DNA of 64,000 nt from Candidatus Dormiibacterota bacterium (GCA_963850385.1 CAWKKS010000001.1:435001-499000); one strand, 5' to 3'; positions 9,371 to 62,898 are shown, counted from the first letter of the stretch. The notes: generated from the letters alone by a model not told the origin. Numbers and translations are program-made.

Positions 9371-9372
9371 CA

Positions 9373-11700
9373 ATGAGCGTGGCGACCGCGTCGATCAACG
9401 CCCGGCCGATGCAGGTGCACCGGTCGATCACTCCCATCCTGGTCGGCACCCTGGTGCTGACCACCGGCTGGTCGGTGCTCGCAGGGGGCTGGACGGATGG
9501 GTCGACCGCCATTCTGCTGGTGGGTGTGGCCGGTACGCTCGAGGGGCTGCTGCTGGCGCGCTGGCGGACGCCGCGCCCGCTGCTGGTCGCCGCGGCACCG
9601 ATCCTGCTGCTCCTCAGCCTGCTGCCCACCAACGCGGCATCGCGGCCGATCGGCACCGGCACGGGCCTGGTCCACGCGCTCGGCCAGTACGCGGGCGCCG
9701 CGGCCACGGGCCTGCTCGGCAACGCCCGCTGGGAGTTCAACGTCGGGCTTGGGGCGCTTCTGTGGCTGTGTGGGGCCTGGGCAGCCTGGTTTGCCGTCCG
9801 CGAGAAGCGCGGCTCGATCGCCACCGGGCCCTGCTGGGCGGTCATTGCCGTCAACGTCATCAACGCGCCGTCCACCACTGGCCTCACCGTCCCGGCGGCA
9901 CTGGCTGCCGCCACCGCGCTGATGCTCGTCGCCGCGGTCAACCTGGAGCGGCTCAACGACAGCTGGCGGCAGCGCCGGGTGAGCGTCCTGCCCGGCACAG
10001 GCGGCCGCTTCGCCACCGCAGCCCTCTTCGGCGCCGCGCTGGTTGTCGTCCTGGCGCTGGTCATCCCACCGCTCAGCAGCACCGACATCTCCGGCCGGCT
10101 CTTCGGCGGCGGCGTCGATGCCGGGGCCGGCAAGGGGAGCCACCACGGCGGAGGCGCGAGCGGTGGTGGCGCGACAGTGCATTTCAACACTGCGACCATC
10201 CCCGGCGGGGCGCTGTCGCTCTCGGACAGCCCGGTCCTCACCTACACGTCCAGCCTGTCCAGCGGGGCGTACCTGCGCATGGAGACCGACAGCGTGTTCG
10301 CCGCCGGCAACTTCCTGCCCGCGCAGAGTGCCAACGACAACGGCGACGACACCGAGGTGATCGTCGACACGCCGGGGCTCATCCCGCGCGATCGCGACAT
10401 CGCCGACGGCGGGGTTGGGGCGCAGCGTGCGCGCGTGTCGCTGACCATCAGCATGATCGACGACACCTCCGACACCAACACGCTGCCGTTCGCCGGCGAG
10501 CCCGACGCGACCGGCGTGCCGTCGCGGGTCGATGGCCTCAGCGGCTCGGAGGTCAATGGACAGCTGCTCACCGTCGACAGCGTGCAGGCACTGCGCCAGG
10601 TGATCGGCACCACGTTCACGACGACGGCGACGGAGTCCACGGCGTCGGCAGACCAGCTTCGCCGAGCGGGCACGTCCTACCCCGCCCTGATCACCCGCGA
10701 CTTCCTCGGCCTCGCTAACGACGGCACCCACGGAGCAGCCGCGATCCGCGCGGTGGCGCTGCAGTGGACCCGCGGCGTCACCAACCCCTACGACGCCGCC
10801 ACCACGATCGAGGCGACTCTTCGCAACCCGCGGCTGTTCCGCTACACGCTGTCGCCGCCGCCGCTTCCACCGGTCACCCAGACCTGGCCTGTGACCTACT
10901 TCCTGACGGTCACCCACGCGGGCTACTGCCAGTACTACGCCGCCGCCATGGGCGCCATGCTGCGAGCCGTCGGCATCCCGTCGCGTCTGGTCAACGGCTA
11001 CGGCCCGGGCACCGCACCCAATGCGGCGGCGCGGCGGGTCGCCTCGGAGAGCCGCTGGACAGTCTCAAGCAACGACGCCCACACCTGGGTGGAGGCGTAC
11101 TTCCCGCGCTACGGCTGGATCCCGTTCGAGCCCACCCCTCCCTCGCAGGCCGGCGACTACCAGCCCTTCGGACGCGGCAGCCTGGGCGCGGTCGGAACGA
11201 CCGGCACCGGGCCGACCCCGCCGGCGACCTCCCCGTCGCAGACGGCGCGGTCGAGCGCCCCGGCGGTCAACGGCGCGGGCACCTCCGCACCCGGGCGTGG
11301 GCGCAGCGTGCTGGTCGGTTTGGGTGGTGGCCTGCTCGCTCTCCTCGCGGTGACCGGGATGTTCGCGGCATGGTTCCTCGGGCCTCGCAACGTCCGCGGG
11401 GTGTGGCGTCGCGTCGGGCTGGTGGGCCGCTGGCTCGGCGTGCCCCGTGACCGGACCCTGACCTTCGACGAGTACACCGAGCGGATCGTGGCCGCGGTCC
11501 CCGGCGACGGGACGGTCCCCTGGCGGGTGCGGTTCGCCGCCGGCCTGGCTGACATCGCCGCCATCAGCGATCGGACGTTCTACTCACCGGCGGGAGGGCA
11601 CCCAGACGACGCTGGTCTGAAGCGCGCGTGGCGGCGGGTCGCGCTACTGGTGCCCCGGCTGAGCCGCGGCGGAGGTGCGCCCCGGGCCGCCGCCCCCTGA
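9373..11700 (+). CDS. transglutaminase-domain membrane protein (DUF3488/DUF4129 type)
   Basis: Multi-TM N-terminus; Cys-His-Asp core 'YCQYYAAAMGAMLRAVGIPSRLVNGY…DAHTWVEAYFPRYGWIPFEPT'. Confidence 0.8.
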   Translation: MSVATASINARPMQVHRSITPILVGTLVLTTGWSVLAGGWTDGSTAILLVGVAGTLEGLLLARWRTPRPLLVAAAPILLLLSLLPTNAASRPIGTGTGLVHALGQYAGAAATGLLGNARWEFNVGLGALLWLCGAWAAWFAVREKRGSIATGPCWAVIAVNVINAPSTTGLTVPAALAAATALMLVAAVNLERLNDSWRQRRVSVLPGTGGRFATAALFGAALVVVLALVIPPLSSTDISGRLFGGGVDAGAGKGSHHGGGASGGGATVHFNTATIPGGALSLSDSPVLTYTSSLSSGAYLRMETDSVFAAGNFLPAQSANDNGDDTEVIVDTPGLIPRDRDIADGGVGAQRARVSLTISMIDDTSDTNTLPFAGEPDATGVPSRVDGLSGSEVNGQLLTVDSVQALRQVIGTTFTTTATESTASADQLRRAGTSYPALITRDFLGLANDGTHGAAAIRAVALQWTRGVTNPYDAATTIEATLRNPRLFRYTLSPPPLPPVTQTWPVTYFLTVTHAGYCQYYAAAMGAMLRAVGIPSRLVNGYGPGTAPNAAARRVASESRWTVSSNDAHTWVEAYFPRYGWIPFEPTPPSQAGDYQPFGRGSLGAVGTTGTGPTPPATSPSQTARSSAPAVNGAGTSAPGRGRSVLVGLGGGLLALLAVTGMFAAWFLGPRNVRGVWRRVGLVGRWLGVPRDRTLTFDEYTERIVAAVPGDGTVPWRVRFAAGLADIAAISDRTFYSPAGGHPDDAGLKRAWRRVALLVPRLSRGGGAPRAAAP

Positions 11701-45450: not shown

Positions 45451-45835
45451 GTGTCACGCCGTGCTCTCGTCTGTGCCGCGCTCCTTGCGTCGACAGCCGC
45501 GCTGGTCGCGGTGGTGGGCTGGCCGGATCTCGGGAGAAGCCTTGGCCTGCTCACCGGCCGTGACGTGACGTCGGACAGCGAGTCCGCATTCGTGGTGGCC
45601 GTCTGCTGGGTCGCGTGGCTGCTGCTGAGCGTGGTGTGCTTCGCCAGGGTGGGTGGATTTGGGGCCCGCTCGCGACTTCGACCGGCGGGGCACGGCCCGC
45701 ACGCTGGCATGGAGCTTGTTGGTGCTGCTCGTCGGCGCCACAACGCTGATCGCCGGCATGGCCAGGCACAGCAGCTACCGCGTCTGTTGTGCATCACCGG
45801 TGACCGCTGAACAGGCTGAACGACTTGTCCACTGA
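45451..45835 (+). CDS. small multi-TM protein, apparently frameshifted at a G-run
   Basis: GTG start 4 nt after the tadC stop. Frame 45451 encodes 2 TM helices and then nonsense; frame 45653 continues with the TM 'LAWSLLVLLVGATTLIAGMA' and ends at 45835, 1 nt before the next start. Confidence 0.3.
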
Positions 45836-45836
45836 G

Positions 45837-47366
45837 GTGGCGGGCTTCGCCTTCATCGTGCTGCTCCGCGACGAGCTCGAGGCACGCGGGCTGGCCGGCC
45901 TTCTCGAGAGCGTCGCTCGACCTGCGCGCGAGGTCGCCGCGACCTTCCTGGTGCCCGAAGTGCGCGGCCGGGACTTCTTCGCCGCGACGGCGCGTCAGGC
46001 CGAGGTCGACCGGTGGTGGGGCAGGCATGTCCCCGAGGACGCCGTGCCGGTGTACCTCATCTGCCACGAGGATGGCCTCGCGGGCTGGCTGCGGGGACTC
46101 GACGGCGTCTTCATGGTGGCCGCCCCGTCCGAGGCCGCGGCTGTCTACACGGAGTGGACGGTCGTCGATGCGCAGCCGGCTGAAGCGCCGCTGGCCCTCG
46201 CCCAGGCCGCCGTCGAGCGGTTCGGGGTGCCCGACGACTCGCCCGACACCGCGCCCTGGGCCGTCTTCGAACGACGCGATGTACGCCTGGTGGCCGACCT
46301 CCGCGCGGGGCTGACGTCCGGGTCCGGCTCGCGACCGGAGTTTCCCCCGCTGCTACACGTCGACGGGATCCGCGCCCCGACCACCGCGGGGCTCCGCGAC
46401 ACCGTCGGGCCTCATCCACTCGACCTGCTCGTCGCCGAGAGTGCGCAGACCCGAGCCGAGCGCGCTCCATGGACGCAAGCCGCCCCCGAGGTGGCACCGG
46501 CGTGGACCGGGAGACTCCTGCGCCCACGGCTCCCGTCACTGCGGCGCCACCACGCGAGCCCGACGATCACCGATGCGGAGCTGGCCGCCCTTCTCGTCGC
46601 CCGTGCGCCAAGCCTGGTGGTGATCGGGTCTCGCAAGGGAGGCGTTGGGAAGACCAGCCATGCGGCTGGCATTGCCATCGCTGCCGGGAGTGTTCTCGAC
46701 ACGGTGGGCCATCGCGCCGCGATCGTCGACGCCAACGTCGCCAACCCGGATGCTTGGGGGCAGCTCGACCTGCCCCCCACAGCGCCGGGCGTCCGCGACG
46801 TGGTGACCGCCCTCACCAACGGCGAGGAGCCGCCTTCGCCGATCCATGCGGTGACGCCTGCGCTGGCCTGCTATCCCGAGCGGCGTGACGGCGTCGAGTA
46901 CAGCCGCACCGACGTGCAGCGATTCGCCGCACACCTGCGTCAGCGGTACTCCTTCGTGGTCGTCGACATGAGCAATCGCCTACCGGACCCGACCGGTGGC
47001 CCGGAGGCGGCGGCCGCGGCGTTCTGGTTGGCTGAGGCCGACGCCCTGGTGTTGCCGACCGGGTCGAGCAAGCAGGACTTCAACGGCGTGCTTGATTACC
47101 TCGACGTGCCCGACCTTCCGCCCACCGTGGTGCCGTACATCGCGTCCTCCGCCCGTCGCAACCGCCGCCACCCGGTGACGCGTCAGTACCTCGAGACCAT
47201 CGGTCCGCGTGTGTGCGCCATCGTCGAGATCCCCGATGAAGCAGACGACGTGCGTTTCGCCGGGATGGAGGGCACGCCGGTGCAGGATGTGTCGCCACGA
47301 ATGCGCGCCGCGTACCGTGCGCTCACCGCCGCGGTCGGCCGCCTGCCCAAGGGCGCCCACGCGTGA
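45837..47366 (+). CDS. CpaE/ParA-family ATPase with a ~280-aa N-terminal extension
   Basis: C-terminal half has a bona fide deviant Walker A 'VIGSRKGGVGKTSHAAG' and 'VVVDMS'. The N-terminal domain is uncharacterised (possibly receiver-like, as in CpaE). The ORF track's TTG at 45825 is an alternative start. Confidence 0.65.
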   Translation: MAGFAFIVLLRDELEARGLAGLLESVARPAREVAATFLVPEVRGRDFFAATARQAEVDRWWGRHVPEDAVPVYLICHEDGLAGWLRGLDGVFMVAAPSEAAAVYTEWTVVDAQPAEAPLALAQAAVERFGVPDDSPDTAPWAVFERRDVRLVADLRAGLTSGSGSRPEFPPLLHVDGIRAPTTAGLRDTVGPHPLDLLVAESAQTRAERAPWTQAAPEVAPAWTGRLLRPRLPSLRRHHASPTITDAELAALLVARAPSLVVIGSRKGGVGKTSHAAGIAIAAGSVLDTVGHRAAIVDANVANPDAWGQLDLPPTAPGVRDVVTALTNGEEPPSPIHAVTPALACYPERRDGVEYSRTDVQRFAAHLRQRYSFVVVDMSNRLPDPTGGPEAAAAAFWLAEADALVLPTGSSKQDFNGVLDYLDVPDLPPTVVPYIASSARRNRRHPVTRQYLETIGPRVCAIVEIPDEADDVRFAGMEGTPVQDVSPRMRAAYRALTAAVGRLPKGAHA

Positions 47367-49483: not shown

Positions 49484-50521
49484 TCAGGCCTTCGGAACAG
49501 CGCCCGTCGCCGGGTCCACCTTGCGCGCACGACTGGGCGCGACGCGCGGCGGTTCGCCCGGCATCTTCGGGTACTGCGGCGGCCAGGGTGCGTCGACCAG
49601 TCCAGCAGCGGTGTCGCGCTGGTGCAGCGCGAGCAGCGGCGCCAGCGACTGGGGTGCCGCATCCAGCAGTGCCCACGGGTCGCCATCGCGCGCGACGCGC
49701 GCGGGAACGGTGGCGATGGTGAGCCCGTCGGGGTGGACCGCGTCGAGCTCCTCCCAGGCAAACGGCGTCGACACCTGGGCACCCGGGCGGGCGCGAACCG
49801 ACCAGGCGCCGAAGATCGTCTTGTGCGGGGCGTTCTGGTTGAAGTCGATGAAGACCCTGCGGCCGCGCTCCTCCTTCCACCATGCCGACGTGATCAGGTC
49901 CGGGCGCCTTCGCTCCAGCTCGCGCGCCGTTGCCACCGCTGCCGAGCGCACCTCGTACGCCGTCCAGCGGGGTTGCAGGCGAACGTACACGTGGATGCCG
50001 CGGTTGCCGGTCGTCTTGGGCATGCACGCCACCCCGTGGTCCTGCAGCAGCCCCCGCACCTCCCGCGCCGCCTCCTGCACCATGCTGAACGTGACCCCGG
50101 GTGTCGGATCGAGGTCGATGCGCAGCTCATCCGAGTGCCCTGGATCGCTGGCTCGCGACGGCCACACGTGAAATCCCAGGCAGCCGAGGTTGACGGCCCA
50201 CAGCACGTGCGCGAGATCGGCGGCCACCAGCGCCTGCGACGTCGTCCCATTCGGTGTGCTGACGGTGGTGGTCTCCAACCAGTCCGGGCGTGACTCGGGC
50301 ACCCGCTTCTGGAAGAAGGAGGAGCCGCCAGCCCCGTTGGGAAATCGTTGCAGGAGCACCGGCCGGCCGCCCATGGCCCGCATCAGCGGCTCCTCGACGG
50401 ACTGGTAATAGCGCACCAGGTCGAGCTTGGTGTCGCCGCGCTCGGCGAAGAAGACCTTGCCGGGGCTGGTGATCGACACCTCGCGCCCGGCCGCCTCGAC
50501 GATCACCGCGTCGTCACCCAT
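49484..50521 (-). CDS. NHEJ LigD polymerase/primase domain (PolDom) protein, standalone
   Basis: 'TSPGKVFF…TKLDLVRYY…LLQRFPNG…WAVNLGCLGFH…ELRIDLDP…KTTGNRGIHVYV' LigD-Pol motifs. No ligase or Ku adjacent. Confidence 0.8.
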   Translation of the reverse strand: MGDDAVIVEAAGREVSITSPGKVFFAERGDTKLDLVRYYQSVEEPLMRAMGGRPVLLQRFPNGAGGSSFFQKRVPESRPDWLETTTVSTPNGTTSQALVAADLAHVLWAVNLGCLGFHVWPSRASDPGHSDELRIDLDPTPGVTFSMVQEAAREVRGLLQDHGVACMPKTTGNRGIHVYVRLQPRWTAYEVRSAAVATARELERRRPDLITSAWWKEERGRRVFIDFNQNAPHKTIFGAWSVRARPGAQVSTPFAWEELDAVHPDGLTIATVPARVARDGDPWALLDAAPQSLAPLLALHQRDTAAGLVDAPWPPQYPKMPGEPPRVAPSRARKVDPATGAVPKA

Positions 50522-50563: not shown

Positions 50564-51254
50564 TCAGGCGCGGTAGGCGAAGCCGCGGCACACGGTCGGG
50601 GTCTGCAGCAGCGCCGCCGCGAGGCGAATGGTGACGGGTGCGCCCGGTCGGATCGTGGATCCGCGTGCCACGCCACCACCGACCAGCGTGCTGCCGACGA
50701 AGCAGGCCGCCACCACCTCGGCAGCCACCGTCGCCGTGGTGGCGACAGTGACGTCCACGGCAGGCGCGACAGCATCGGGGACGAACACCGCGCTCCGCAC
50801 CGCCAGTGGGTTGGCCGCCGCCGCCGACGGCAGCCCGCCGGCGCTCGCTGTGACCGACCCGATGCTGTCGTCCGCGGGCACGGCGAGCCGCACCATCGCC
50901 GCCTCAGCCTCCTCGGCTCCGAGCGCGGCAATCGTGGCGTCACCTTGCACATCGGACCGCCCGTTGGCGCTGTGGGCGACCACCCTCACCCGCACCGCCA
51001 CCCGTGGCGTGGTGTCGTTGACCACCACCACGAAAGCCACTGTCCCGGACGGCGTGGGCGCCGTGACGGTGTCGGTGATCAGTGTTGTCGACGACCCGGT
51101 GGTGGCCGGCGCCGGCGAGACCGTCGCCGCGCTGAACGGCGTGGAGTGGGCGCCGCCGCTGATCGGTGGCCGGCCCGCGTCGCCGCAGCCGCCCAGCAGG
51201 ACGATCGCGGCGGTCGCGGTCGACCAGTGACGCCCGCGATGCCGCCCGCTCAAC
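50564..51254 (-). CDS. lipoprotein of unknown function
   Basis: TTG start overlaps the upstream stop (TTGA). Signal + lipobox 'AAIVLLGGC'; Ala/Val/Thr-rich. Confidence 0.4.
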
Positions 51255-53421
51255 TGACCACTGTCGCCATGTTGTCGATGTAGCTGAAGGACCGGGTGAA
51301 GTCTGCCCACGAGAACACCTTGCGGGTGGCGGTGTAGGGGTCGTTGATGATCACCTGCTGGGTGCCGAAGTCAATGCCGACAAGGGCGAACACATGGTTG
51401 TTGAGGACATACTGGACGGTGCGACCGTCCCACGCCGTGTAGGTGCGTGGAGCCGCATCTGCCATGTTGTACGAGCCCTCGACGGCTGCCGGGTAGCCGG
51501 ATACCACAAGGTCGAAGAGCTGGCTGACGCTCCACTGCTCCTTGCCGATGGCGCCGTGGCCGAGGTATTGGGCCATGCGCGCCAGGGGCGGGTAATAGAT
51601 CCCATACCCGGTCGCGTTCCATTCGGAGGCGTTGACATTGCCGACGAACGCCGTGTACGGGTCGCCCCACTGCACGATGTTCCCCGCCGCATCCTTCGCC
51701 GCGGGACGGAGATCGGCTCCCCAGTAAGCCAACTCCCAGTCCTGGCTGACGCTGGTCCCGCGGGCGGCAAGCACCATCTGCATGGTGGCAGCCTCGCAGT
51801 CGAGCGGATGCGCCTGCTTGGTCATGGGCACGTTGAGGAGGTACAGCCCGCCCACGCCTGCGGCATAGGCAGCGGAGGCGTCGCTCGACAGGGGTTGCGG
51901 TGCGGCCTGCGGATCCGTGGGGTTGAGCAGCGCGACGTCACGGACGATGTCCCAGCTCCCCCAGTCAGTCCAATGCGCCCACGAGGGGTGGACGTACCCG
52001 CCGGCGAACGACACCACCGTCCCGCTCCTGGCCACGCTGTACCAGCCGAAGCCGGTCTGATGCAGGGCGTGGTACATCGGCCGGCCGGGGTTGGGTGTGG
52101 CGTCACCGAGAGGTGGCGCGGCACCGAAGGCATGGGTGCGACCGACATCGTCCATCGCCCATCCACCGTCCGGTGTGCCCCTGGCGTTGCTGTGGATGAC
52201 CAGCCCCCGGTAGATGTCGAAACCCTGCATGTATGGTGGCCCACCGATGTCGGGCGCCGCGCCCCACGCGTGAACACCGCCGAATCCGTCGAGGACGTAC
52301 CCGGCCGAGCCGTCCGCGATCCCCTGGGAGTCGTGAGCGGTCACCACCAACGACCGCGCGATGTCCCAACCCCAGTACACCGGGGTGGGAGCTGCCGGCG
52401 CCGCGCCCCACGCGTGGACGGCCCCGAAGCCATCAAGCGTCCAGCCGCCGCTGCCATCCTCGCGCACCTGCACTGCGCGGGCGATGTCCCACCCCGGCCA
52501 GTACGGTGCGCCGCTGCCGTTGACGGGTATCTGCCCGAAGGGGCGCAGACCTCCGAAACCATCGAGGGTGACGCCGCCCGAGGGCCTCTGCGCAGCTGCT
52601 GATATGGCGGCGGCGGCGGCGCTCCGAGGCTGCGGGGTGGGCTGCCCGGCGTCGCTCCGCAACAGGGCGACGTCCCGCTGGATGTCCCACGCGCCCCAGT
52701 CCGGGTACGCGGACCAATACGGCTGCACGGCGCCCCACACCTGCATGGCGCCCCAGTGACCGACCGTGTACCCAGTCGCAGCTGTGCCGCGCATCTTCAC
52801 CCACAGCGCCTTCCCGGCCGGCACCACCGGGGCGGCCTTCGCGGCTGCGGCGCCGAACGCGTGCAGCGTGTCGTCGCTGTACAGGATCCAGCCCCCATCC
52901 GGGGCCCCGCCGGTGTCGTAGTCCACCATCAGGCTTCGGGCGATGTCAGTTCCCGGGTAGGGGCCGGCGAGCGCCGGCGCGCCGCCCCACGGGTGGATTC
53001 CTCCCAACCCGTCGAGGAGGTACCCCTGGCGGCCGTCGACCTCACCATCTGTTCCGCGTGACGTCAGCACCATGTCGCGAGCGATGTCCCAGCCACGCCA
53101 GTACGTGGGCGTCGCCACTGTCGAGGCGCCTCCCCAGGAGTGCACGGCGCCGAAGCCATCGAGCGTCCAACCACCGCTCCCGTCGGCGCGAACCACGACA
53201 GAACGGGCGATATCCCACCCCGGCCAGTAGGGCGCGTTCACGGAGTTGATCGAGGCGCCCCCGAAGGTGTGCAGGCCGCCATAACCATCGAGCACCACCC
53301 CGCCCGGTTGCGGTGCGGCGGCCGCGCCGGCCGCATCCAGCGCGACAGGCGGCGCCAGCAGCGAGGCTGCCACGACCAGCAACGCAGCCATGCGGCGCCA
53401 CTGCCGGCGCCGTGGGGACAT
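51250..53421 (-). CDS. secreted protein: ~10 tandem 'LDGFGG-H-FG…YW-GWDIAR' repeats plus a C-terminal peptidase C39-like domain
   Basis: Signal 'MAALLVVAASLLAPPVALDAAGAAAA'. Repeats e.g. 'WTLDGFGAVHSWGGAS…YWRGWDIARDMVL'. C-terminus 'PLDCEAATMQMVL…NNHVFALVGID…IINDPY' has the Cys/His/Asp pattern of a C39-like peptidase. Confidence 0.65.
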   Translation of the reverse strand: MSPRRRQWRRMAALLVVAASLLAPPVALDAAGAAAAPQPGGVVLDGYGGLHTFGGASINSVNAPYWPGWDIARSVVVRADGSGGWTLDGFGAVHSWGGASTVATPTYWRGWDIARDMVLTSRGTDGEVDGRQGYLLDGLGGIHPWGGAPALAGPYPGTDIARSLMVDYDTGGAPDGGWILYSDDTLHAFGAAAAKAAPVVPAGKALWVKMRGTAATGYTVGHWGAMQVWGAVQPYWSAYPDWGAWDIQRDVALLRSDAGQPTPQPRSAAAAAISAAAQRPSGGVTLDGFGGLRPFGQIPVNGSGAPYWPGWDIARAVQVREDGSGGWTLDGFGAVHAWGAAPAAPTPVYWGWDIARSLVVTAHDSQGIADGSAGYVLDGFGGVHAWGAAPDIGGPPYMQGFDIYRGLVIHSNARGTPDGGWAMDDVGRTHAFGAAPPLGDATPNPGRPMYHALHQTGFGWYSVARSGTVVSFAGGYVHPSWAHWTDWGSWDIVRDVALLNPTDPQAAPQPLSSDASAAYAAGVGGLYLLNVPMTKQAHPLDCEAATMQMVLAARGTSVSQDWELAYWGADLRPAAKDAAGNIVQWGDPYTAFVGNVNASEWNATGYGIYYPPLARMAQYLGHGAIGKEQWSVSQLFDLVVSGYPAAVEGSYNMADAAPRTYTAWDGRTVQYVLNNHVFALVGIDFGTQQVIINDPYTATRKVFSWADFTRSFSYIDNMATVVS

Positions 53422-53519
53422 CCTGCCCCCCGGCTTCTGCCGCACCGGGAGATGGTAAGTGCGCCGCGGCCGAAAAGCGGCGCACGCGACAGTGATGCGA
53501 CGACGGTCCCTGCGCGCGG

Positions 53520-56034
53520 CTACGCGATCGACAGCTGCTTGACGATGCCGCCGGCCGCGGCGCTGGGCACGGAGACTGCCGGCGCTCCCCCGAACGCGTG
53601 CATCACGCCCCACCCGTCGGCCACGTACCCGGCGCTCGACGAACCGGGGAGAAGGACGACACCGCGTGCGATGTCCCAACCCGACCAGTAGGCAGATGGC
53701 GGCGAAGGCGATGGCGGGGAGTTTCCCGCAGTACCGAACTGGTGCAGGCCGCCGAAGCCGTCGAGAACGTAGCCGCCGGTGCCGGCGGCGTCGAGCACGA
53801 ACCGATGGGCGATGTCCCACCCGCTCCACCATGCCGACACGGTCACGTCAGGTGCCATGTCGTTCGGTGCACCGAATGGATGCACACCCCCCCAGCCGTC
53901 GAGGACGTAGCCACTCTGCCCGTCCCCGCGGAGCTGTACATCGCGACCGATGTCCCAGCCACGCCAGTAGGCGGAGACGTTGACGTCGGGGGGCATGTCG
54001 CCTGCTGTCCCGAACGGATGCAACGTGCCCCATCCGTCCAGCACGTAGCCACTGTGCCCGTCGGAACGCAGGACGATCCCGCGTGCGATGTCCCACCCGG
54101 GCCAGTAGCCGGTGCCGTTCACGGTGGGGGCGTTGCCCAGCGCATGGATGCCGCCGAAGCCGTCGAGCAGGTAGCCGCCGAGACCTCCCGAGCTGATCGC
54201 CACGCCGCGCACGATGTCCCATGTCGGCCAGACGCTGGCATTCGCCATCGGGGCTGAGGATCCGCCATGCAGGAGGCCGTGACCGTCGACGGCATACATC
54301 CCCCTGAATGGCGTGGCCCAGGTCGCCGACTGTGAGAACGCGGTCGACACCGTCCCCGCGGAGAACGTTGGTTCGGCCGCGCCGGGTTGGATGGCGAAGT
54401 CGTAGGTGTGGCCGGGCTGGCCGTAGAACGGCATGCTCGTCGACCCTGTCCGCCCGTAGGGCGCCCAGCCGCCGATGCCACGGTCCTTGACCCACAGCGT
54501 GTACTGACCGGCGCCGACACTGTTCGCATCGAGGCTCCAGGCGAGTGTCACGGCTGTCGTGTTCTGCGTGGCCGATGGTGCAGTCATCGTGGCGCTGGGC
54601 AGGATGACGCCGCTCAATTGGCCGTTCCCATGAAAGGTGGGCCACGCGCCGGCAAGCATCCTGTTGGTGCCGGGGATGGCGAAGGCACGGACGGTCCACG
54701 AGTTGAAGGAAGAGCTCGTGGTCTGGTCGACGGTGACGACGCTGAGCTGCGCGCCACCCAGGCTGCCGATCGCCGGTGCGCCGAACGCGCCCCAGTCCAG
54801 GCCCCCGGCCGTCCATACCAGCTGGCCGGCACCGTTGAAGGCGTCAAGGGTGCCGAGGTTGGCGATCCAGACTCCGTTGGCCGTGGCGCTGATCGGCCCG
54901 ATGGTCGGGTTGGCGATCAGGCCGTTCTGGTTCAGGTTGACCGGCCACCCCGCCAGCGGGCTGCCGTTTGCGCTCCACGCGTAGACGCGACCGTCAGCAC
55001 TGGCTTCCACGACCTCGCGCTGACCATTGCCGAAGAGGTCCCCGGCAGCCGGCGACGCCATGTTTCGACCGCCGGTTGCCTGAGGCCATCCGCCCAGGCG
55101 AGCGCCCGCGCTGCTCCAAGCGTTGACGTACTGGCCGGCAGGCGCGGCGAAGTTGAGCCCGCTGCCGTCGACGATCTCAGTGGAGCCATTGTTGAGGAGG
55201 TCCGCGGCCAACGGTGACGACCAGGGGACCTGGTCGAACGTCTGCGGCCATCCCGGCAGGACGCAGCCGGAGCTGTTCGCATACGTGGCGGTGCATCCCG
55301 TGGGGCGGAACGCCCACATCTCTCCACCGCGCTGGTACGGGTCGTAGGGCGGCCCCGTCGAGTTCGAAGCCCACGACGATGTCGAGCTGCCCTCGATGTT
55401 CGAGGTCGACGAGCGTCGGCGTGTCGAAGGCCGTGTCCCACACGTGGATGGGGAAGCCGGGAAGGAGCGCCCCCGTCTTGTTCCATGCGTAGAGGTGCTG
55501 GTCCCACGCCGCGGCCACGAGCTCGTTGTTGCCGTCACCGAAGAGGTCGCCGACGGCGACGCCGCCGAAGAAACCGGCCGGGGTGTTGGGGGGAGGCATG
55601 CTGTGTTGGGGCCAGCCGGGGGCGAGGGATCCGTCGCCGTTCCACACGTACACCCGACCTGCCTCCGAGGTCGCGATCACCTCCTCGCGGCCGTCGTTGT
55701 TGAGATCGGCGACCGATGGGTTGGTGTGCATGGCGCCGCCGGTGAACTGAGGCCAGCCGGGCAGCTCGGCACCGGTCAGGCCGTCAAGCACTGACACGCT
55801 GCCGTCCATGAAGCCGACCACCACCTGCTTGCGTCCATCCCCGAACAGGTCGGCGATGGTGGCACCGCCGAGTGGCTGCGCCGACACCTTGGAGGCAGTG
55901 CTCGAGCCCGGACCGACGTGGATTGTCGCGCTCCAGCTCTGGCTCAGCGTACCGGCGGCGGCGGCGCGCTGACCGGGAACCAACATGCCGAAGGTTGCGA
56001 TTCCCAAGGCAATCGCGGCGAGGAACTTCCACAC
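53520..56034 (-). CDS. secreted FG-GAP-like / Fn3-like / 'WDIAR'-repeat protein (one apparent frameshift near 55356)
   Basis: Signal '(M)WKFLAAIALGIATFGMLVPGQRAAAAG'. FG-GAP-like 'DLFGDGRKQVVVG', 'DLNNDGREEVIA', 'GDLFGDGNNELV'. Frame switches at GGGG (55356) into '…GPPYDPYQRGG…'. C-terminus has 5–6 copies of 'YVLDGWGGVHPFG…YWRGWDIGRD'. Confidence 0.6.
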
Positions 56035-56153
56035 AACTGCACCCACCGGCTCCACGCTACCGGATGGGATTGGCGACCTCGCGCTTCGCAACCAACTCGT
56101 GGCGGCGCCGTTGGTGCGCCTGCGGGAGGCCCGTGCGCGACGGCGAGCCGCGT

Positions 56154-56231
56154 TGGTCGGGAAGGGGAGATTCGAACTCCCGACCTCACGGTCCCGAACC
56201 GTGCACTCTAACCTGGCTGAGCTACTTCCCG
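56154..56231 (-). tRNA. tRNA-Pro (anticodon CGG)
   Basis: Cloverleaf on the reverse strand: acceptor CGGGAAG/CTTCCCG, anticodon stem CACGG/CCGTG with loop TTCGGGA, T-arm GGGAG-TTCGAAT-CTCCC, discriminator A, encoded CCA. Confidence 0.85.
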
Positions 56232-56312
56232 AGCCGCCGGAGTCTAGCACTGCGCTGTCGGGATCCTCGGACCCCACACCTACAATGGCCCCACATCCAT
56301 TGAGGAGAGCGG

Positions 56313-57302
56313 ATGAGCCCGCGTGCCACAGCGTCTCCACGTTCCTCGCGGCAACGGGCCGGCGACGAGCTGCTCGCGCTCGCTGCGGCGCCGCCGCGTC
56401 CTCGCCGTCAGACCGCGCCGCGTACCCCGAGCCCGCTGCGCGAGATCATCGACACGTTGGACGGCACCGTACAGGGGGTGCTCGAGCGGGGCCGGCACGG
56501 CTCACTCGACGAGCGCGATCCCGAGTACATGGCGCGCAACCTCCGCTGGCTCAACTACGTCGCCGACTACTACTTCCGCGGTGAGGTGCGCCACCTCGAG
56601 CGCATCCCCGCCACCGGGCCGGTGCTGCTGGTCGGCAACCACAGCGGTGGCATGGCCACACCGGACACGTGGGTGTTCATGGTGAACTACCTTCGGCACT
56701 TCGGCCTCTGCCGCCCCAGCTACGCGCTGGCGCACAACATCGTCATGGGTCTGCCGGTCATGGGCGCGATGCTGCGCAAGTCGGGCACGCTCCCCGCGCA
56801 CCCGGATTTCGCGCGAGCGGCACTGCGCAAGGGTGCGTCGGTGCTGGTGTATCCCGGCGGGGACGAGGACGTGTTCCGCACCTGGTCGGAGCGCAACCGC
56901 ATCCACCTGGCGAATCGGACCGGCTTCGTTCGGCTGGCCTTGCAGGAGCGCGTACCCATCCAGCCCGTCGTCAGCATCGGCGGCCACGAGACCGTGTTCG
57001 TCGCCAGTGATGGCAAGAAGCTGGCGCGCCTGCTCGGGCTCGAGAGATTCCGCCTCAAAGCCCTGCCCATCATGTTCTGCCTGCCGTGGGTGGTGTCGCC
57101 TGGCAATTACCTGCTGCATGTCCCGCTGCCGGCAAAGATCACCGTCGAGGTGGGCGAACCGATCGACTTCCACGCCACGTTCGGCACCCTCGACCCGCGC
57201 GATCCCGAGGTGCTGTGGGCGTGTTACCACTACGTCGAGCAGCGGATGCAGGGCATCCTCGACGGGCTGGCCGCGGAACGCAGGCTTCCCGTGCTCGGCT
57301 GA
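56313..57302 (+). CDS. lysophospholipid (1-acyl-sn-glycerol-3-phosphate) acyltransferase family protein
   Basis: 'LLVGNHSGGMATPD' HX4D-type acyltransferase motif, 'VYPGGDED'. Confidence 0.7.
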   Translation: MSPRATASPRSSRQRAGDELLALAAAPPRPRRQTAPRTPSPLREIIDTLDGTVQGVLERGRHGSLDERDPEYMARNLRWLNYVADYYFRGEVRHLERIPATGPVLLVGNHSGGMATPDTWVFMVNYLRHFGLCRPSYALAHNIVMGLPVMGAMLRKSGTLPAHPDFARAALRKGASVLVYPGGDEDVFRTWSERNRIHLANRTGFVRLALQERVPIQPVVSIGGHETVFVASDGKKLARLLGLERFRLKALPIMFCLPWVVSPGNYLLHVPLPAKITVEVGEPIDFHATFGTLDPRDPEVLWACYHYVEQRMQGILDGLAAERRLPVLG

Positions 57303-57321
57303 CCACCCGGAGGATCACGCC

Positions 57322-57801
57322 ATGGGACACATCACCAGCAGCGAGCTCATCGCCGCACCGGTCGAGACGGTGTTCGCGTTCGTCGACGACCATCGCAACA
57401 CGACCAAGTACATGAAGGACCTCACCAGGTGGGCGCCCGTCGGCGCCACGACGCATGGCAAGGGGGCGAGGTTCGCGGTGGCCATGAAGGCGGGGCCGAT
57501 GACCCTCTCCTCAGTGGTTGACATCACCACCTGGAAGGCGAATCGCACCATCGGCTGGAAGTCCACCGAGGGGTTCAAGCAGACGGGCAGGTGGTCGTTC
57601 GCGCCATCAGACGGCGGCACCGAGGCCACCTTCGACATGGAGTACGAGCTGCCCGGTGGCATTGCCGGACGGATGGCATCGCGCCTCGCGGACCCTGTGG
57701 TCCGCAGCAACATCGAGCAGTCAGTCCGCGCCCTGCGGTCGCAGGTCGAGCGAGCGGTGAAGGCGAAGAACCCGGCGAAGCCGCCCGCGCGCAAGCGCTG
57801 A
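57322..57801 (+). CDS. SRPBCC-family protein
   Basis: ATG preceded by 'ggaggatcacgcc'; 159 aa with a polyketide-cyclase/START-like fold pattern. Confidence 0.6.
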   Translation: MGHITSSELIAAPVETVFAFVDDHRNTTKYMKDLTRWAPVGATTHGKGARFAVAMKAGPMTLSSVVDITTWKANRTIGWKSTEGFKQTGRWSFAPSDGGTEATFDMEYELPGGIAGRMASRLADPVVRSNIEQSVRALRSQVERAVKAKNPAKPPARKR

Positions 57802-59178
57802 CAGAGGCGGTTCGATCGCGTCGCGGGGGCGGAGGTTGCCAGACCCCACCACGAACATCATCGCGATGGCGGCGATGAAGTAGTAGTTGATGAAAGCCTG
57901 CTTGCCGAAGAAGCACACGACGACGAGCAGCCCCGCTCCCGCAGCCAGCATGGAGCCGTAGTCCCGAGGTCGGCGCAGCGTGAAGACTGCCAGTACGACG
58001 GCGATGCCGGCAAGCAGGACGATGCTCGGCAGGAAGCCGTGGCCGAGGACGTTGGAGAGGCCGTCAAGGCTGACGCTGTCCGGTCGGGTCGGCAGGTCGC
58101 CGAAGACGCCTGCGGTGTCGTAGATGAACTGGGCGACTCCCGTCCAGATCGCGAAGGGGAGAAGCACCAGCACCGTCCCCCCCAGCGCCCAGGTCAGCTC
58201 ACGTCGGGATTCTCTCGTCCAGAGCAGCAGAGGGAGCATGACCAGCAGGATGGACGGCTTGCTGGAGAGGCCGAGGGTGAGGACGAAGGTCGCCCAGCCC
58301 CGGTGGCGTTCGCGCAGCACGAGCCACCAGGCGAGACCGGCGACGCAGAACGTGTCGGTCCACTCGGTGAGGACCATGAACGGCACGAACGGCGAGGCCA
58401 TCCACAGCGCGGTGATGGTGGGGGAGAGGCGGTGGCTGCCGGTCCCTCGCCGCGTCCACACCAGGATGGCCGCCAGGATGGCGATGTTGAGCACCACGAC
58501 GGTCAGGCGCACGTCACCGAGCAGGCGCGCGGGGAGGCTCAACAAGACCACCATCGGCCCGTAGCAGAGCGCCGCGGTGCCGAAGACGGCCTGGCCGTGC
58601 CAGGCGTGGTTGCCGACCCACCCCAGGAACACCGGGTACTGAGCCGAGTACGGGTTCTGGCCGTGGAGGAGCGCCGCGGTTGAGCCCTGGATCTCCGCGA
58701 AGACATCGATCTTGGCGTGGCCCCACTGCCACTCACCGACCATGGCCGCGAGAGTCACTGCCCCCGCCCCGGCCACGAAGAGCCATGCGACGCGACTTGA
58801 GCGCACCAACGGCACAGCGGCGAGCCCGGCACCGACGAGGTAGATCTGCGGGCCGGGCACGATGAAGGCAGGCTGAAGAAACGTCTGGGCGCCAATCGCA
58901 ACCGCGCAGAGGACGGCGCCGGGGAGGGACGCGGGGCGGCTGATGCACAGGTAGCAGAGCAGTGCCGAGAGCGCGATCAGGATGAAGCCCACCACGTACC
59001 GGCCGGGGTCGGGCGCCACGTCGACGTTGCCCGCCCCAAAACGCGCCCACACGTTCCCTGTGCCCAGCGCGCACAGGCCGATCACGGCGATGTCCGCCCG
59101 CCCGGTGGCGCGGATCCGGGCGGACACCCGCGACCACCCCGCGGTCGGCGCTGGGCGTGCCGGCGCCAACGCGGTCAT
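57721..59178 (-). CDS. polytopic membrane protein (GT87/DUF2029-like glycosyltransferase family)
   Basis: ≥10 TM helices with aromatic-rich loops. ATG at 59178 chosen over the longer ORF that carries Arg-rich junk. Confidence 0.5.
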   Translation of the reverse strand: MTALAPARPAPTAGWSRVSARIRATGRADIAVIGLCALGTGNVWARFGAGNVDVAPDPGRYVVGFILIALSALLCYLCISRPASLPGAVLCAVAIGAQTFLQPAFIVPGPQIYLVGAGLAAVPLVRSSRVAWLFVAGAGAVTLAAMVGEWQWGHAKIDVFAEIQGSTAALLHGQNPYSAQYPVFLGWVGNHAWHGQAVFGTAALCYGPMVVLLSLPARLLGDVRLTVVVLNIAILAAILVWTRRGTGSHRLSPTITALWMASPFVPFMVLTEWTDTFCVAGLAWWLVLRERHRGWATFVLTLGLSSKPSILLVMLPLLLWTRESRRELTWALGGTVLVLLPFAIWTGVAQFIYDTAGVFGDLPTRPDSVSLDGLSNVLGHGFLPSIVLLAGIAVVLAVFTLRRPRDYGSMLAAGAGLLVVVCFFGKQAFINYYFIAAIAMMFVVGSGNLRPRDAIEPPLSALARGRLRRVLRLHRSLDLRPQGAD

Positions 59179-59471
59179 GGCGCGCCTCTCTTCACGCTCC
59201 GAGGTTAGGCGCAGCCGCCCGATGGCGGGCGACATCGCCGTCCCAAGCCAATGGTGGCACTGTGACGCGGGACCGATCGCGTTGTCTGCCACGGCGCTGT
59301 CATCGCCACAGCGCCGCTGTTACGCCGCCTCCACCACTCTGCAACCCCGCGAGCGCAGCCGTCCTGCCGCGACCCCCCGATAATCGCCGTTGCCTTCCGC
59401 GATCGGACCGCGCGGGATTCGCCAGGTCGTCAAACAGCCGCGGACCCAACGCGGCACGTTGAGGTGGAGCC

Positions 59472-61205
59472 TTGAGCGTCGTCTCCCGGGCTCGCCGCAT
59501 CGCCCCGCGAACGCGAGCGAGCTCCGCGGCGGCGGCAGAGGTGGGCTCGGACCTGAGCACGCCGCTGGACCTGTCGCAGGCGGTTCGGCTGCTCACCGGG
59601 TTGTCCATGATCGGGTGGTCGATCCTCTGGTGGATCGAGGACACGACATCCCTGACCGGGCCGGTGATGACCTTCGTGTCGCTGGTCGGGGGACTGACCC
59701 TGATCGGGGTGAGCGTGACACCCCGCTCCCCGGCGTCGTGGAAGAAGGTCGACCGCTGGATCATGGTCTTCGCACTCGTGGTCACCGGCATGTGGCTTGC
59801 CGGGCGCTCGTCACAGCACATCTACCAGACGGACGAGATCACCACGGGGCAGGCGTCGGCCGCCGTGCTCCTGGCCGGGCATGACCCGTACTCGACGGAC
59901 CTGACGCACGAGCTGGGTCGGTTCGCTCTGCCGCCGGAGGTGTCGACCCCGCTGCTCGGTGGCGGCACCATCCATTCGACCAGTTACCCGGCTCTGTCCT
60001 TCCTTCTGTACGTCCCGTTCGGCGCGCTGCTCGGCGTCGGTTCCCCCTTCGCCCTTGTGGCAGACGGGCTCTGCTGGATCGTGCTGATGATCCTGCTCTG
60101 GCGCTTGCTCGATGCCCGACTGCGCCCGATCGTCCCCCTGATCGCGAGCTTCCCCTTCTATGTGAGCTTCGTCGACGGTGGTGTCACCGACGTCATGTAC
60201 CTTCCCTTCCTGGTCCTCGCCCTGCATCGCTGGGACCGCTTCCTCGATGTCGACGAGAGCCGCCTGCGTCGATGGGTCGGGCCCGTCTGCCTCGGACTCG
60301 CCTGCAGCGTGAAGCCCACCCCGTGGCTGATGGCGCCATTCCTGGTGGCGGCGGTGACGGTCGAGCTGGCACGGCGCGGACGCAGCCCATGGCGCGGAGC
60401 CGCCCGGTACTCAGCCATCGCGGTCGGCGCCTTCCTCGTGGTCAACGGGCCATTCATCGTCATGGACCCCGCAGCGTGGGTGCATGGCACGCTCCTGCCG
60501 CTGCTGTCACCGCTGGTGCCGTTCGGACAGGGCATCGCGATGCTCCCCGTCTACCTGCACGTCGCCGGTGGCCATGTCGGCTACCTCGGGATCGCCGGCC
60601 TCGCCGCCGTGGTGGCCAGCCTCGGCGCGTTCGTCGGGTTCTACCCGCGCACCGCACGGCTGCTGCCGCTGATGGCCGCGGCGCCCCTTCTCCTCTCGTC
60701 GCGATCGCTGTTCAACTACTTCCTCTACGTCGCCATCCTGGTGCTTGTCCACGCCGTCAACGTCCCCTACAGCCGGCGCACCGCCCATCGAGGTCACCGA
60801 TTCTTCGCGTGGGGTGGGAAGACGGTGCTCGGCGCGGGCATGGCGCTTGCCACCGCGGCGACCGTTGCCTTCCTGGCGAGTCCTGCGCCCCTGCAATTGA
60901 CCGTCATCGCCCAGAGTGGGTCAGGCTTCCCGGGGACTGCCACCCCCACCCTCACGGTGGCCGCCGTCAACCTGAGCGACCGTGCGGTGAAGCCGGTCTT
61001 CCTGGTGACCGCCGGTGGCTGGATGAACCCCGCCTTCCGCGTCGCGCAGGGGCCCGCGATCCTGGAGGCGCACGCGCACGCCACCTACGTGCTGGTGAGC
61101 ACCGACTCGAGGACGCGGTTTGACACCGGTACCCGATACCTCGTCGACGCGCTCGGATCGAACCCGGGCTCGGTCAGCACCTCGCAGTGGGTCACCACCC
61201 CCTGA
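59472..61205 (+). CDS. polytopic membrane protein (possible glycosyltransferase / DUF2029-like) with a C-terminal extracytoplasmic domain
   Basis: TTG/alternative start uncertain; multiple TM helices; C-terminal ~120-aa soluble domain. Confidence 0.5.
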   Translation: MSVVSRARRIAPRTRASSAAAAEVGSDLSTPLDLSQAVRLLTGLSMIGWSILWWIEDTTSLTGPVMTFVSLVGGLTLIGVSVTPRSPASWKKVDRWIMVFALVVTGMWLAGRSSQHIYQTDEITTGQASAAVLLAGHDPYSTDLTHELGRFALPPEVSTPLLGGGTIHSTSYPALSFLLYVPFGALLGVGSPFALVADGLCWIVLMILLWRLLDARLRPIVPLIASFPFYVSFVDGGVTDVMYLPFLVLALHRWDRFLDVDESRLRRWVGPVCLGLACSVKPTPWLMAPFLVAAVTVELARRGRSPWRGAARYSAIAVGAFLVVNGPFIVMDPAAWVHGTLLPLLSPLVPFGQGIAMLPVYLHVAGGHVGYLGIAGLAAVVASLGAFVGFYPRTARLLPLMAAAPLLLSSRSLFNYFLYVAILVLVHAVNVPYSRRTAHRGHRFFAWGGKTVLGAGMALATAATVAFLASPAPLQLTVIAQSGSGFPGTATPTLTVAAVNLSDRAVKPVFLVTAGGWMNPAFRVAQGPAILEAHAHATYVLVSTDSRTRFDTGTRYLVDALGSNPGSVSTSQWVTTP

Positions 61206-61259
61206 GCTCCGCTCCCCGATCGCCTCGCCGCCCGGCGTCTGCGAGAATGACTTCCTGAC

Positions 61260-62201
61260 GTGAACGAGGAGACCAGGGTGGCCACGAGCAACGGCACCAC
61301 GCACCAGGAGCACGCCGGTCACCGCACCGGTGGCCTGCGAGTCAAGCGCGGCCTCGCAGAGATGCTCAAGGGCGGCGTGATCATGGACGTCGTCACCGCC
61401 GACCAGGCCCGGGTGGCCGAGGAGGCCGGGGCGGTCGCCGTCATGGCGCTGGAGCGTGTGCCGTCCGACATCCGCCGCGACGGCGGCGTCGCCAGGATGA
61501 GCGCCGTCAACCTGGTCACCGAGATCAAGCAGGCCGTGACCATCCCGGTGATGGCCAAGGCGCGCATCGGCCATTTCGTCGAGGCGCAGGTGCTCGAGGC
61601 CCTGGGGATCGATTACGTCGACGAGTCCGAGGTGCTCACCCCCGCTGATGAGGAGCACCACATCGACAAATGGGCGTTCACGATCCCGTTTGTGTGCGGC
61701 GCGCGCGACCTCGGTGAGGCGCTCCGCCGCATCGGCGAGGGTGCTGCGATGATCCGCACCAAGGGCGAAGCCGGCACCGGCAACGTGGTGGAGGCGGTGC
61801 GCCACATGCGGGCTGTCCGGGGCGGCATCCGGCGTATCCAGGGACTGCGCCGCGACGAGCTCATGGCAGAGGCGAAACGGCTGCAGGCGCCCTACGAACT
61901 GATCGTGGAGATCGCGGAGACAGGCAAGCTCCCGGTGGTCAACTTCTCGGCCGGAGGTATCGCCACCCCTGCTGATGCCGCGCTGATGATGCAACTCGGC
62001 GCCGAGGGCAACTTCGTCGGCAGCGGCATCTTCAAGAGCGACGATCCGCTCAACTACGCCAAGGCGATCGTCGCCGCGACCACGTATTTCGACAAGCCCG
62101 AGGTGATCGCCGAGGTCAGCGCCGGGCTCGGTGCCGCAATGCGCGGGCTGGACGTGGCCAGCATGCCCCGCGAGGAGCTGCTCTCCACGCGCGGCTGGTA
62201 G
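61260..62201 (+). CDS. pdxS: pyridoxal 5'-phosphate synthase, lyase subunit
   Basis: GTG start; '[10 protein letters not shown]…[20 protein letters not shown]…[12 protein letters not shown]…' PdxS signature. Confidence 0.9.
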
Positions 62202-62292
62202 AGATGACGGTCGGATCCAGGGGGTACACTCGTGGTGTGCTCCTGACGCTCGAGCTTGGCGCAGGGCGGGGCCGCCGCGTCCGCTGGGACGG

Positions 62293-62898
62293 CTGACGAT
62301 CAGCACCGTCGGTGTCCTTGCCCTCCAGGGCGATGTCCGTGAACACCTCGCTGCCTTCGGCCGCTGCGGTGCCCGCGCCGTCCCGGTCCGCCTCGCCGCC
62401 GAGCTTGCCGCCGTGGACGCACTGGCCATCCCGGGCGGCGAGTCCACCACCATCAGCAAGCTGCTGCGCGCATTCGGGCTCGAGGAGCCGCTGCGTCATC
62501 GCCTGACGGAGGGCCTGCCAACCCTGGCCACCTGTGCCGGGCTCATCCTGCTGAGCCGACTGATCGTCGACGGCCGTCCCGACCAGGTCGTCACCGGCAC
62601 CCTTGACGTGGCCGTTCGCCGCAACGCCTGGGGCAGCCAGGTCGAGTCCTTCGAATCGGATGTGAAGATCGACGTGCTCGGTGATCTCCCGTTTCGCGCC
62701 GTGTTCATCCGCGCCCCCCGCATCGAGGAGGTCGGGGCGGGGGTCGAGGTGCTCGCCAGGCTGGACGGCGAACCGATCGCGGTACGCCAGGGATCGCACG
62801 TGGGGCTCACCTTCCACCCCGAGCTGACCGGGGACGACCGCATTCATCGCCTCTTCCTTGACCGCGTCGAAACCGCCCGCGACGAGAGCGCCGCATGA
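62293..62898 (+). CDS. pdxT: pyridoxal 5'-phosphate synthase, glutaminase subunit (no canonical start codon at the conserved N-terminus)
   Basis: '(L)[18 protein letters not shown]…IPGGESTT…TCAGLILL…AFGSQ…FHPEL' PdxT motifs. The only codon at the expected start is CTG (62293). Confidence 0.75.

Follow-up and report, generated by a model that had tools for sequence, protein, structure and literature searches.

Three adjacent genes of an uncultured soil Dormibacterota bacterium, here called A, B, and C, raise the question of what is accomplished by a repeat of ~45 residues ('GYxLDGxGGxHxFG ... YWxGWDIARxVxL') that recurs in two secreted proteins, A and B, the first of which ends in a cysteine peptidase and is followed by a lipoprotein gene. 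The locus lies in a stretch of 64,000 nucleotides (70% G+C) that was analyzed as a whole and is referred to as the window; all three genes are on the minus strand (Table 1). A tRNA-Pro(cgg) gene (56154..56231, minus strand) is located 120 nt upstream of B, as an earlier note on this DNA had recognized, and no secretion-system or mobile-element genes adjoin the locus. A defence-system or phage origin was set aside, as PADLOC and PHROG gave no matches. A relative with 77 to 81% identity (locus L001) keeps the order B (intact)-A-C-LigD, and its B-A-C flanks match the window in the kinds of genes present, with LigD at one end and genes for an acyltransferase, SRPBCC, and GT87 at the other.

Table 1. 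Features of genes A, B, and C, with coordinates counted from the first nucleotide of the window
Feature	Coordinates	Strand	Description
Gene C	50564..51253	-	Lipoprotein, 229 aa; translationally coupled to A
Gene A	51250..53421	-	Secreted protein, 723 aa (ORF and translation): signal-like N-terminus, two five-repeat propeller modules, C-terminal C39-like cysteine peptidase
A, presumed export signal	53314..53421	-	Residues 1-36: basic RRRQWRR, hydrophobic helix, Ala-rich stretch; predicted from sequence
A, propeller module 1	52639..53313	-	Residues 37-261; five repeats, three canonical and two degenerate
A, propeller module 2	51901..52590	-	Residues 278-507; five-repeat layout as in module 1 (unit HMM and AF2)
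A, C39-like papain-fold peptidase domain	51253..51861	-	Residues 521-723
A, catalytic set	Cys541 51799..51801; His675 51397..51399; Asp693 51343..51345; Gln535 51817..51819	-	
Gene B	53520..56034	-	837 aa once repaired: signal-like N-terminus, 8-bladed FG-GAP/BamB-like propeller, fn3-like sandwich, six-repeat module
B, frameshift (+1)	55363..55364	-	Single surplus A (GAAC where orthologues have GAC)
B, FG-GAP-type 8-bladed beta-propeller	54609..55947	-	Residues ~30-475
B, fn3-like beta-sandwich	54321..54593	-	Residues 481-571; AF2 strand pattern
B, six-repeat module	53523..54311	-	Residues 575-837; six unit-HMM matches

The repeat consensus that the earlier note had read in both proteins is borne out by an HMM of the repeat unit built from homologues, which finds ten copies in A (E values from 8e-22 to 0.05), six in B, and none in the other ORFs of the 64-kb window. 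Those in A are organized as two blocks of five, each with three canonical (LDGxGGxH...YWxGWDIAR) and two degenerate copies, such that a proposed arrangement in blocks of about five describes A and not the six repeats of B. Blocks of either five or six are found throughout the family, and a GH25 protein (P0083) has three blocks of five. TRF reports no tandem repeat at the DNA level, and the periodicity is confined to the protein; the copies share no repeat at that level and are thus old duplications, and a DNA tandem repeat or assembly artefact is ruled out as their source.

The repeat also lies outside named families, as had been suspected. There is no Pfam match even at E<=10, and profile searches of NCBIfam, PHROG, and PADLOC do not contain it; the repeat region also stays without a match to Pfam families in hmmscan runs on A and B, on individual modules, and on a triple repeat of consensus sequence. 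Specifically, it has no profile match to LGFP, CW_binding_1/2, ChW, SLH, LysM, SH3b, WD40, FG-GAP, or DUF346, and kinship with DUF346 was further set aside by comparison of the consensus sequences, which are visibly different. A profile of 24 modules searched against PDB sequences yields a single chance match (E 0.8), and literature searches with strings from the repeat motif return only chance matches in unrelated papers.

The AF2 model of A (78 homologues; pLDDT 94.2, pTM 0.85) is organized as an N-terminal helix, two five-repeat modules, and an alpha/beta peptidase domain, with the modules at pLDDT >90 and three strands in each repeat, each followed by a short helix. The modules are of the propeller type and are predicted to have five or six blades, a count that follows from the numbers of repeats and strands; each blade would consist of the third strand of one repeat and the first hairpin of the next, with the ring closed by the first hairpin and the last strand. 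The best solved matches in a fold search are generic propellers with 6 to 11% identity, mostly protein-binding ones (WD40, LRP6 YWTD, and PknD NHL). Tachylectin-2-type lectins are five-bladed propellers built from tandem repeats, and A likewise has five ~45-aa repeats per unit, with blade closure presumed and carbohydrate binding plausible. However, tachylectin appears in no list of sequence or fold matches, and the repeats of A and B have neither sequence nor close structural homology to these lectins. The five-bladed propeller of tachylectin type that the earlier note had envisaged thus stands as propeller-type modules, with five repeats in each of those in A, but without the tachylectin link; identities of the repeat as tachylectin, WD40, LGFP, or FG-GAP were all dropped, as neither profile nor close fold matches were found. 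The conserved His, Asp, Arg, and Trp of the repeat could form a structural network as in WD40 proteins instead of a binding site, and two of the five blades in each module of A are without the motif.

The C-terminal domain of A is a C39-like peptidase, as the earlier note had also proposed. It matches Peptidase_C39_2 (PF13529) over the full profile (positions 1-143) at residues 529-696, with 55.9 bits against a cut-off of 24 and an E value of 9.5e-15. Among the 78 homologues, Cys541 and His675 are invariant, and Gln535 and Asp693 are conserved in at least 90%; the papain-like fold, the Cys/His pair with Asp/Asn, and the oxyanion Gln place the domain in Peptidase_C39_2 of the YvpB/3erv type. 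Structurally, the domain is nearest to the stand-alone 3erv type and not to the PCAT type, and staphopains are also among the fold matches of A. There is no ABC-transporter fusion, nor was a bacteriocin-like gene seen nearby, and a classical C39 bacteriocin-processing peptidase, as in the PCAT N-terminal domain, was rejected for want of the ABC-transporter fusion. The product is 100% identical to a database protein (P0001), and its Dormibacterota orthologues are annotated 'C39 family peptidase', but A differs from 3erv (a Bacillus anthracis putative C39-like peptidase), YvpB, and PF13529 proteins by the two five-repeat propellers ahead of the peptidase and by the coupled lipoprotein gene. Its ATG is preceded by a GGGGGCAGG stretch, and the N-terminus is modeled as a helix at residues 4-20 followed by low-confidence residues 22-28. 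Peptidase_C39_2 is listed among the lytic domains of phages of Gram-positive hosts (PMC8223927), and the lysin domain of a mycobacteriophage matches 3erv (PMC3314691); our literature search found no biochemical function or direct substrate evidence for the 3erv-type domain.

The repeat family is large and is concentrated in a few lineages. A module profile, of which module 2 of A is the first row (profile A2), matches 1,992 clusters at 50% identity (1,356 of them at E<=1e-10) among 1.84 billion representatives and at least 544 stretches in GTDB species genomes. The GTDB matches are mostly in Dormibacterota and Acidimicrobiia, with some in Myxococcota and other MAGs, and a single cultured isolate, Salinilacustrithrix flava, is represented, with its homologue at about NZ_CP133888.1 2407824..2409689. 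The source itself belongs to Candidatus Dormibacterota and not to Actinobacteria, the lineage suggested earlier, though the repeat is also present in Acidimicrobiia; the sources of close homologues give the name Candidatus Dormibacteraeota or Dormibacteria. Several loci have three or four paralogues of the family in a row.

The domains to which the modules are fused are the most informative about their role. One and the same two-module cassette is found ahead of C39_2 in some proteins and ahead of a YkuD L,D-transpeptidase in others, with one YkuD protein (P0074) being 51% identical over the cassette, and the three-module protein mentioned above carries a GH25 muramidase (E 2e-40). A set of 56 family representatives includes M23 (six) and CHAP (three) domains as well as many Ig-like, fn3, and PKD domains, and 50 genome ORFs contain Polysacc_deac_1, YkuD, and CHAP (four of each), PQQ_2 (five), CAP (three), and GH18 (two), together with single cases of M23, Glucosaminidase, GH114, and S8. 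Domains that act on peptidoglycan predominate among the partners, which fits the cell-wall or carbohydrate binding put forward in the earlier note. The modules are also exchangeable in that FG-GAP proteins resembling B have DUF346 repeats or DUF4214 in place of the repeat module, a swap expected of a binding module. Two IMG/VR contigs, both divergent, code for a five-repeat module at the N-terminus of a minor tail protein encoded after the tape-measure gene, which is the usual place of host-surface-binding modules; GenBank phages with the module number zero.

We modestly favor the reading that the repeat forms an uncurated propeller that binds the cell wall or a surface glycan and would deliver a cysteine peptidase to the wall. 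Recurrent fusion to peptidoglycan enzymes, module exchange, and presence on phage tails are all features of known wall-binding repeats and point to this role. The propeller modules would serve as a portable targeting cassette whose ligand in the monoderm envelope would be peptidoglycan or else a glycopolymer linked to the wall. Gene A would then export a papain-fold, C39-like (YvpB/3erv-type) peptidase behind two propellers that hold it on the wall, and Cys541, His675, and Asp693 would most likely cut the stem or cross-link peptides of peptidoglycan, with A acting as an autolysin or remodelling enzyme. Dormibacteraeota have been placed in a monoderm clade that has lost SLH/CsaB (bioRxiv 10.1101/2021.05.31.446380), such that exported proteins would meet the wall directly.

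Choline-binding, CWB2, GW/SH3b, LysM, SLH, and LGFP wall enzymes follow the same logic, in which one targeting module is joined to many catalytic domains, and the union of a catalytic domain with targeting repeats is a well-known design, so that the proteins described here extend a known principle and found no new one. The targeting repeat itself, however, is without a model in the libraries searched and was not found in the searchable literature. It differs from the known wall-binding repeat families, to which it has no Pfam sequence match, and the propeller fold is, to our knowledge, unusual among wall-binding repeats.

In many members of the family the partner has no wall connection, being a PQQ_2/BamB-like propeller or an Ig-like, PKD, CAP, S8, or GH18 domain, which leaves room for a different glycan, or for a protein, as the ligand. 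An unlikely though credible alternative is that the C39-like domain acts as a protease in the processing of proteins or peptides, for example in the maturation of surface proteins (B among them) or the cleavage of leader peptides, with propellers that bind an environmental polysaccharide or protein. The lack of a transporter fusion or bacteriocin-like gene and the stand-alone character of the closest structure argue against such processing, as do the facts that peptidoglycan enzymes are the strongest recurrent partners and that the identical two-module cassette also occurs with YkuD.

The coupling of gene C to gene A, noted earlier from the sequence, is conserved. The TTG start of C (51253..51251) overlaps the TGA stop of A (51252..51250) in a TTGA at 51250..51253, and C orthologues lie directly 3' of A orthologues in five other loci (L001, L003, L004, L005, and L007), in every one of which the genes overlap at TTGA or TGATG and the protein has a lipobox, a linker rich in Pro, Ser, and Thr, and two invariant Cys. 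The arrangement persists in the most distant loci, where C has only ~27 to 30% identity. The protein has a lipobox (...AAIVLLGG-C23), a ~45-aa linker rich in Pro, Ser, Thr, and Ala, and a domain of ~165 aa with the invariant C184 and C222; read by eye, the orthologue lipoboxes are LLAGC, LAIGC, LAAGC, FISGC, and LLAAC at the same position. It has no family or solved-structure match in Pfam, NCBIfam, or the PDB, resemblance to another lipoprotein (E 0.3) in PDB and Pfam comparisons being confined to the signal and linker region, and a large protein database returns two matches.

Staphopain-staphostatin and SpeB-Spi are pairs in which a papain-fold protease is followed by the gene for its cognate inhibitor, and C is likewise a small conserved gene immediately downstream of a papain-fold peptidase and cotranslated with it. 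Unlike those inhibitors, C has a long linker and is exported as a lipoprotein, and neither families nor solved structures similar to it were detected. As a membrane-tethered lipoprotein whose translation is coupled to that of A, C most likely acts as a partner of the peptidase close to the membrane, where it may regulate the enzyme or, by this analogy, inhibit it.

The same gene pair could be viewed as a secreted bacteriolytic weapon directed against neighbours, with propellers that recognize the target wall and C as an immunity lipoprotein that neutralizes the peptidase at the membrane of the producer, a reading that we consider improbable. The genes that flank the L001 cluster are of the same kinds as here, orthologues of A occur widely in Dormibacterota, and nearby secretion-system or mobile-element genes are absent; moreover, the same cassette carries L,D-transpeptidases, which are builders of a cell's own wall. 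It is very unlikely that the propellers are instead BamB- or WD40-like platforms that assemble an extracellular complex and recruit wall enzymes to a protein scaffold and not to a glycan, for although most structural matches are protein-binding propellers and the pTM of full-length A suggests fixed domain packing, the modules occur on phage tail proteins, can be replaced by DUF346 repeats in the same place, and are present in many paralogues whose unrelated catalytic domains resemble the pattern of known wall-binding repeats.

With wall binding as the preferred reading, a broader proposal can be put forward tentatively: this undescribed family of wall-anchoring propellers may provide general surface targeting in monoderm Dormibacterota and Acidimicrobiia (taken here as lineages reported to have lost SLH/CsaB), phages of these hosts may have borrowed it as a receptor-binding module, and C may represent a novel kind of regulator or inhibitor that is tethered to the membrane and acts on a wall-bound cysteine peptidase. 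Dormibacterota and many Acidimicrobiia abound in soil but have been cultured rarely or never, and their cell envelope is almost unstudied; many of the wall enzymes that they export are marked by a family of ~2,000 clusters (at 50% identity) for which Pfam and NCBIfam have no model. If the modules bind the wall, genome annotation would be improved for proteins that are now named by their catalytic domain alone or as hypothetical, and the family would point to a wall polymer displayed by these lineages and offer a handle on organisms beyond present cultivation, through fluorescent module fusions, lysin engineering, and phage host prediction. The conserved peptidase-lipoprotein pair is a concrete and testable case of autolysin control. 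The main value of these findings is for annotation and as an entry into the envelope biology of uncultured soil phyla.

Gene B, which the earlier note had taken as a single ORF, changes frame, and its parts are found in two window ORFs in different frames (55177..56340 and 53520..55538). Removal of one base at 55363/55364 gives a protein of 837 aa that aligns to an orthologue (P0121) at 81% identity without a gap across the join, and B orthologues of 815 to 890 aa are intact. The deposited annotation has only a 513-aa C-terminal product (P0132), and among the ORFs of L001 compared with the window by tblastn, B alone splits into two frames. The frameshift is either a sequencing error or a real mutation, which are indistinguishable from sequence.

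The FG-GAP and fn3 parts of B that the earlier note described are present. Repaired B is modeled with a pLDDT of 89.3 and a pTM of 0.84, and its N-terminal part combines a profile match (FG-GAP_3, E 3.4e-14) with a multi-bladed propeller fold, which places it among FG-GAP/VCBS-type propellers. The fn3-like sandwich is evident in the model, and PF00041 is among the precomputed domains of four B orthologues (P0134, P0135, P0162, and P0163). The repeat module has six sets of three strands (residues 579-836), the final strand being the C-terminal 'KQLSIA', and it is presumably a six-bladed propeller, judging from the repeat and strand counts. B would thus be a wall-anchored surface protein in which the 8-bladed FG-GAP propeller and an fn3 spacer are held by the six-repeat module. 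It differs from Vibrio cholerae Bap1 and from BamB-type 8-bladed propellers by the fn3-like domain and the six-repeat module, and a role as an adhesin or matrix protein like Bap1 is only an analogy. In another genome, a B orthologue stands back to back with a YkuD fusion that itself bears the family repeats, with eight unit matches.

Gene B, which codes for an FG-GAP propeller, an fn3-like sandwich, and a six-repeat module, is broken into two frames in the window by one surplus A at 55363..55364 (-). The frame is unbroken in its orthologues, only a 513-aa fragment is retained in the deposited annotation, and when the ORFs of the related locus L001 were searched against the window, gene B was the only one whose match was split between two frames.

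In other database proteins, the gene B-type FG-GAP propeller is followed at the C terminus by DUF346 repeats (P0168, P0170, and P0176) or DUF4214 (P0201 to P0206 and P0215) in place of the propeller repeat, which makes the C-terminal module an exchangeable one. The neighbor of the gene B orthologue on a 1.06-Mb Dormibacterota contig (L002) is a YkuD fusion and not a C39 protein; this L,D-transpeptidase contains repeats of the same family, with eight matches to the single-repeat HMM.

Two IMG/VR contigs code for minor tail proteins with an N-terminal five-repeat module of this repeat family, each directly preceded by a tape-measure gene, suggesting that phages use the module to recognize the host surface. 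In several Dormibacterota and Acidimicrobiia genomes, paralogues stand in tandem, each with a six-repeat module at its end; the arrays suggest that surface proteins with this anchor have expanded in particular lineages. A six-repeat ORF, with no Pfam domains outside the repeats, is also encoded by the cultured acidimicrobial isolate Salinilacustrithrix flava, a possible way into experiments on the repeat family.

The next gene downstream of gene C, the lipoprotein gene, in the window codes for a stand-alone LigD primase-polymerase domain. It is a neighbor in relatives too, without apparent connection to the repeat proteins. For three long ORFs in the window, Pfam gave no match at E ≤ 0.001. 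One pair among them overlaps, with the two ORFs on opposite strands, which means that one or both may not be genes. Upstream of tRNA-Pro are acyltransferase/DAGAT-like, SRPBCC, and GT87 genes, which may have to do with the lipids or glycans of the envelope, and the same families flank the L001 cluster.

Locations of features in the window and in other loci
Feature	Location	Strand	Size or match
LigD primase-polymerase domain gene	Window 49484..50521	-	PF21686, E 6.5e-92
Acyltransferase/DAGAT-like, SRPBCC (Polyketide_cyc2), and GT87-family membrane glycosyltransferase genes	Window 56313..59292		
Long ORF	Window 45825..47366	+	513 aa
Long ORF	Window 59472..61205	+	577 aa
Long ORF	Window 60921..62459	-	512 aa
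Divergent adjacent pair, gene B orthologue and YkuD L,D-transpeptidase	L002 5797..7776 and 8001..10523	- and +	
Six-repeat ORF, S. flava	L051 5722..7587 (NZ_CP133888.1, about 2407824..2409689)		622 aa, stop to stop
Minor tail protein	L081 4809..6980		HMM E 1e-34
Minor tail protein	L082 4503..7343		HMM E 4e-13
Tandem paralogue array	L043		Four ORFs in 13 kb
Tandem paralogue array	L046		Four ORFs
Tandem paralogue arrays	L057, L060
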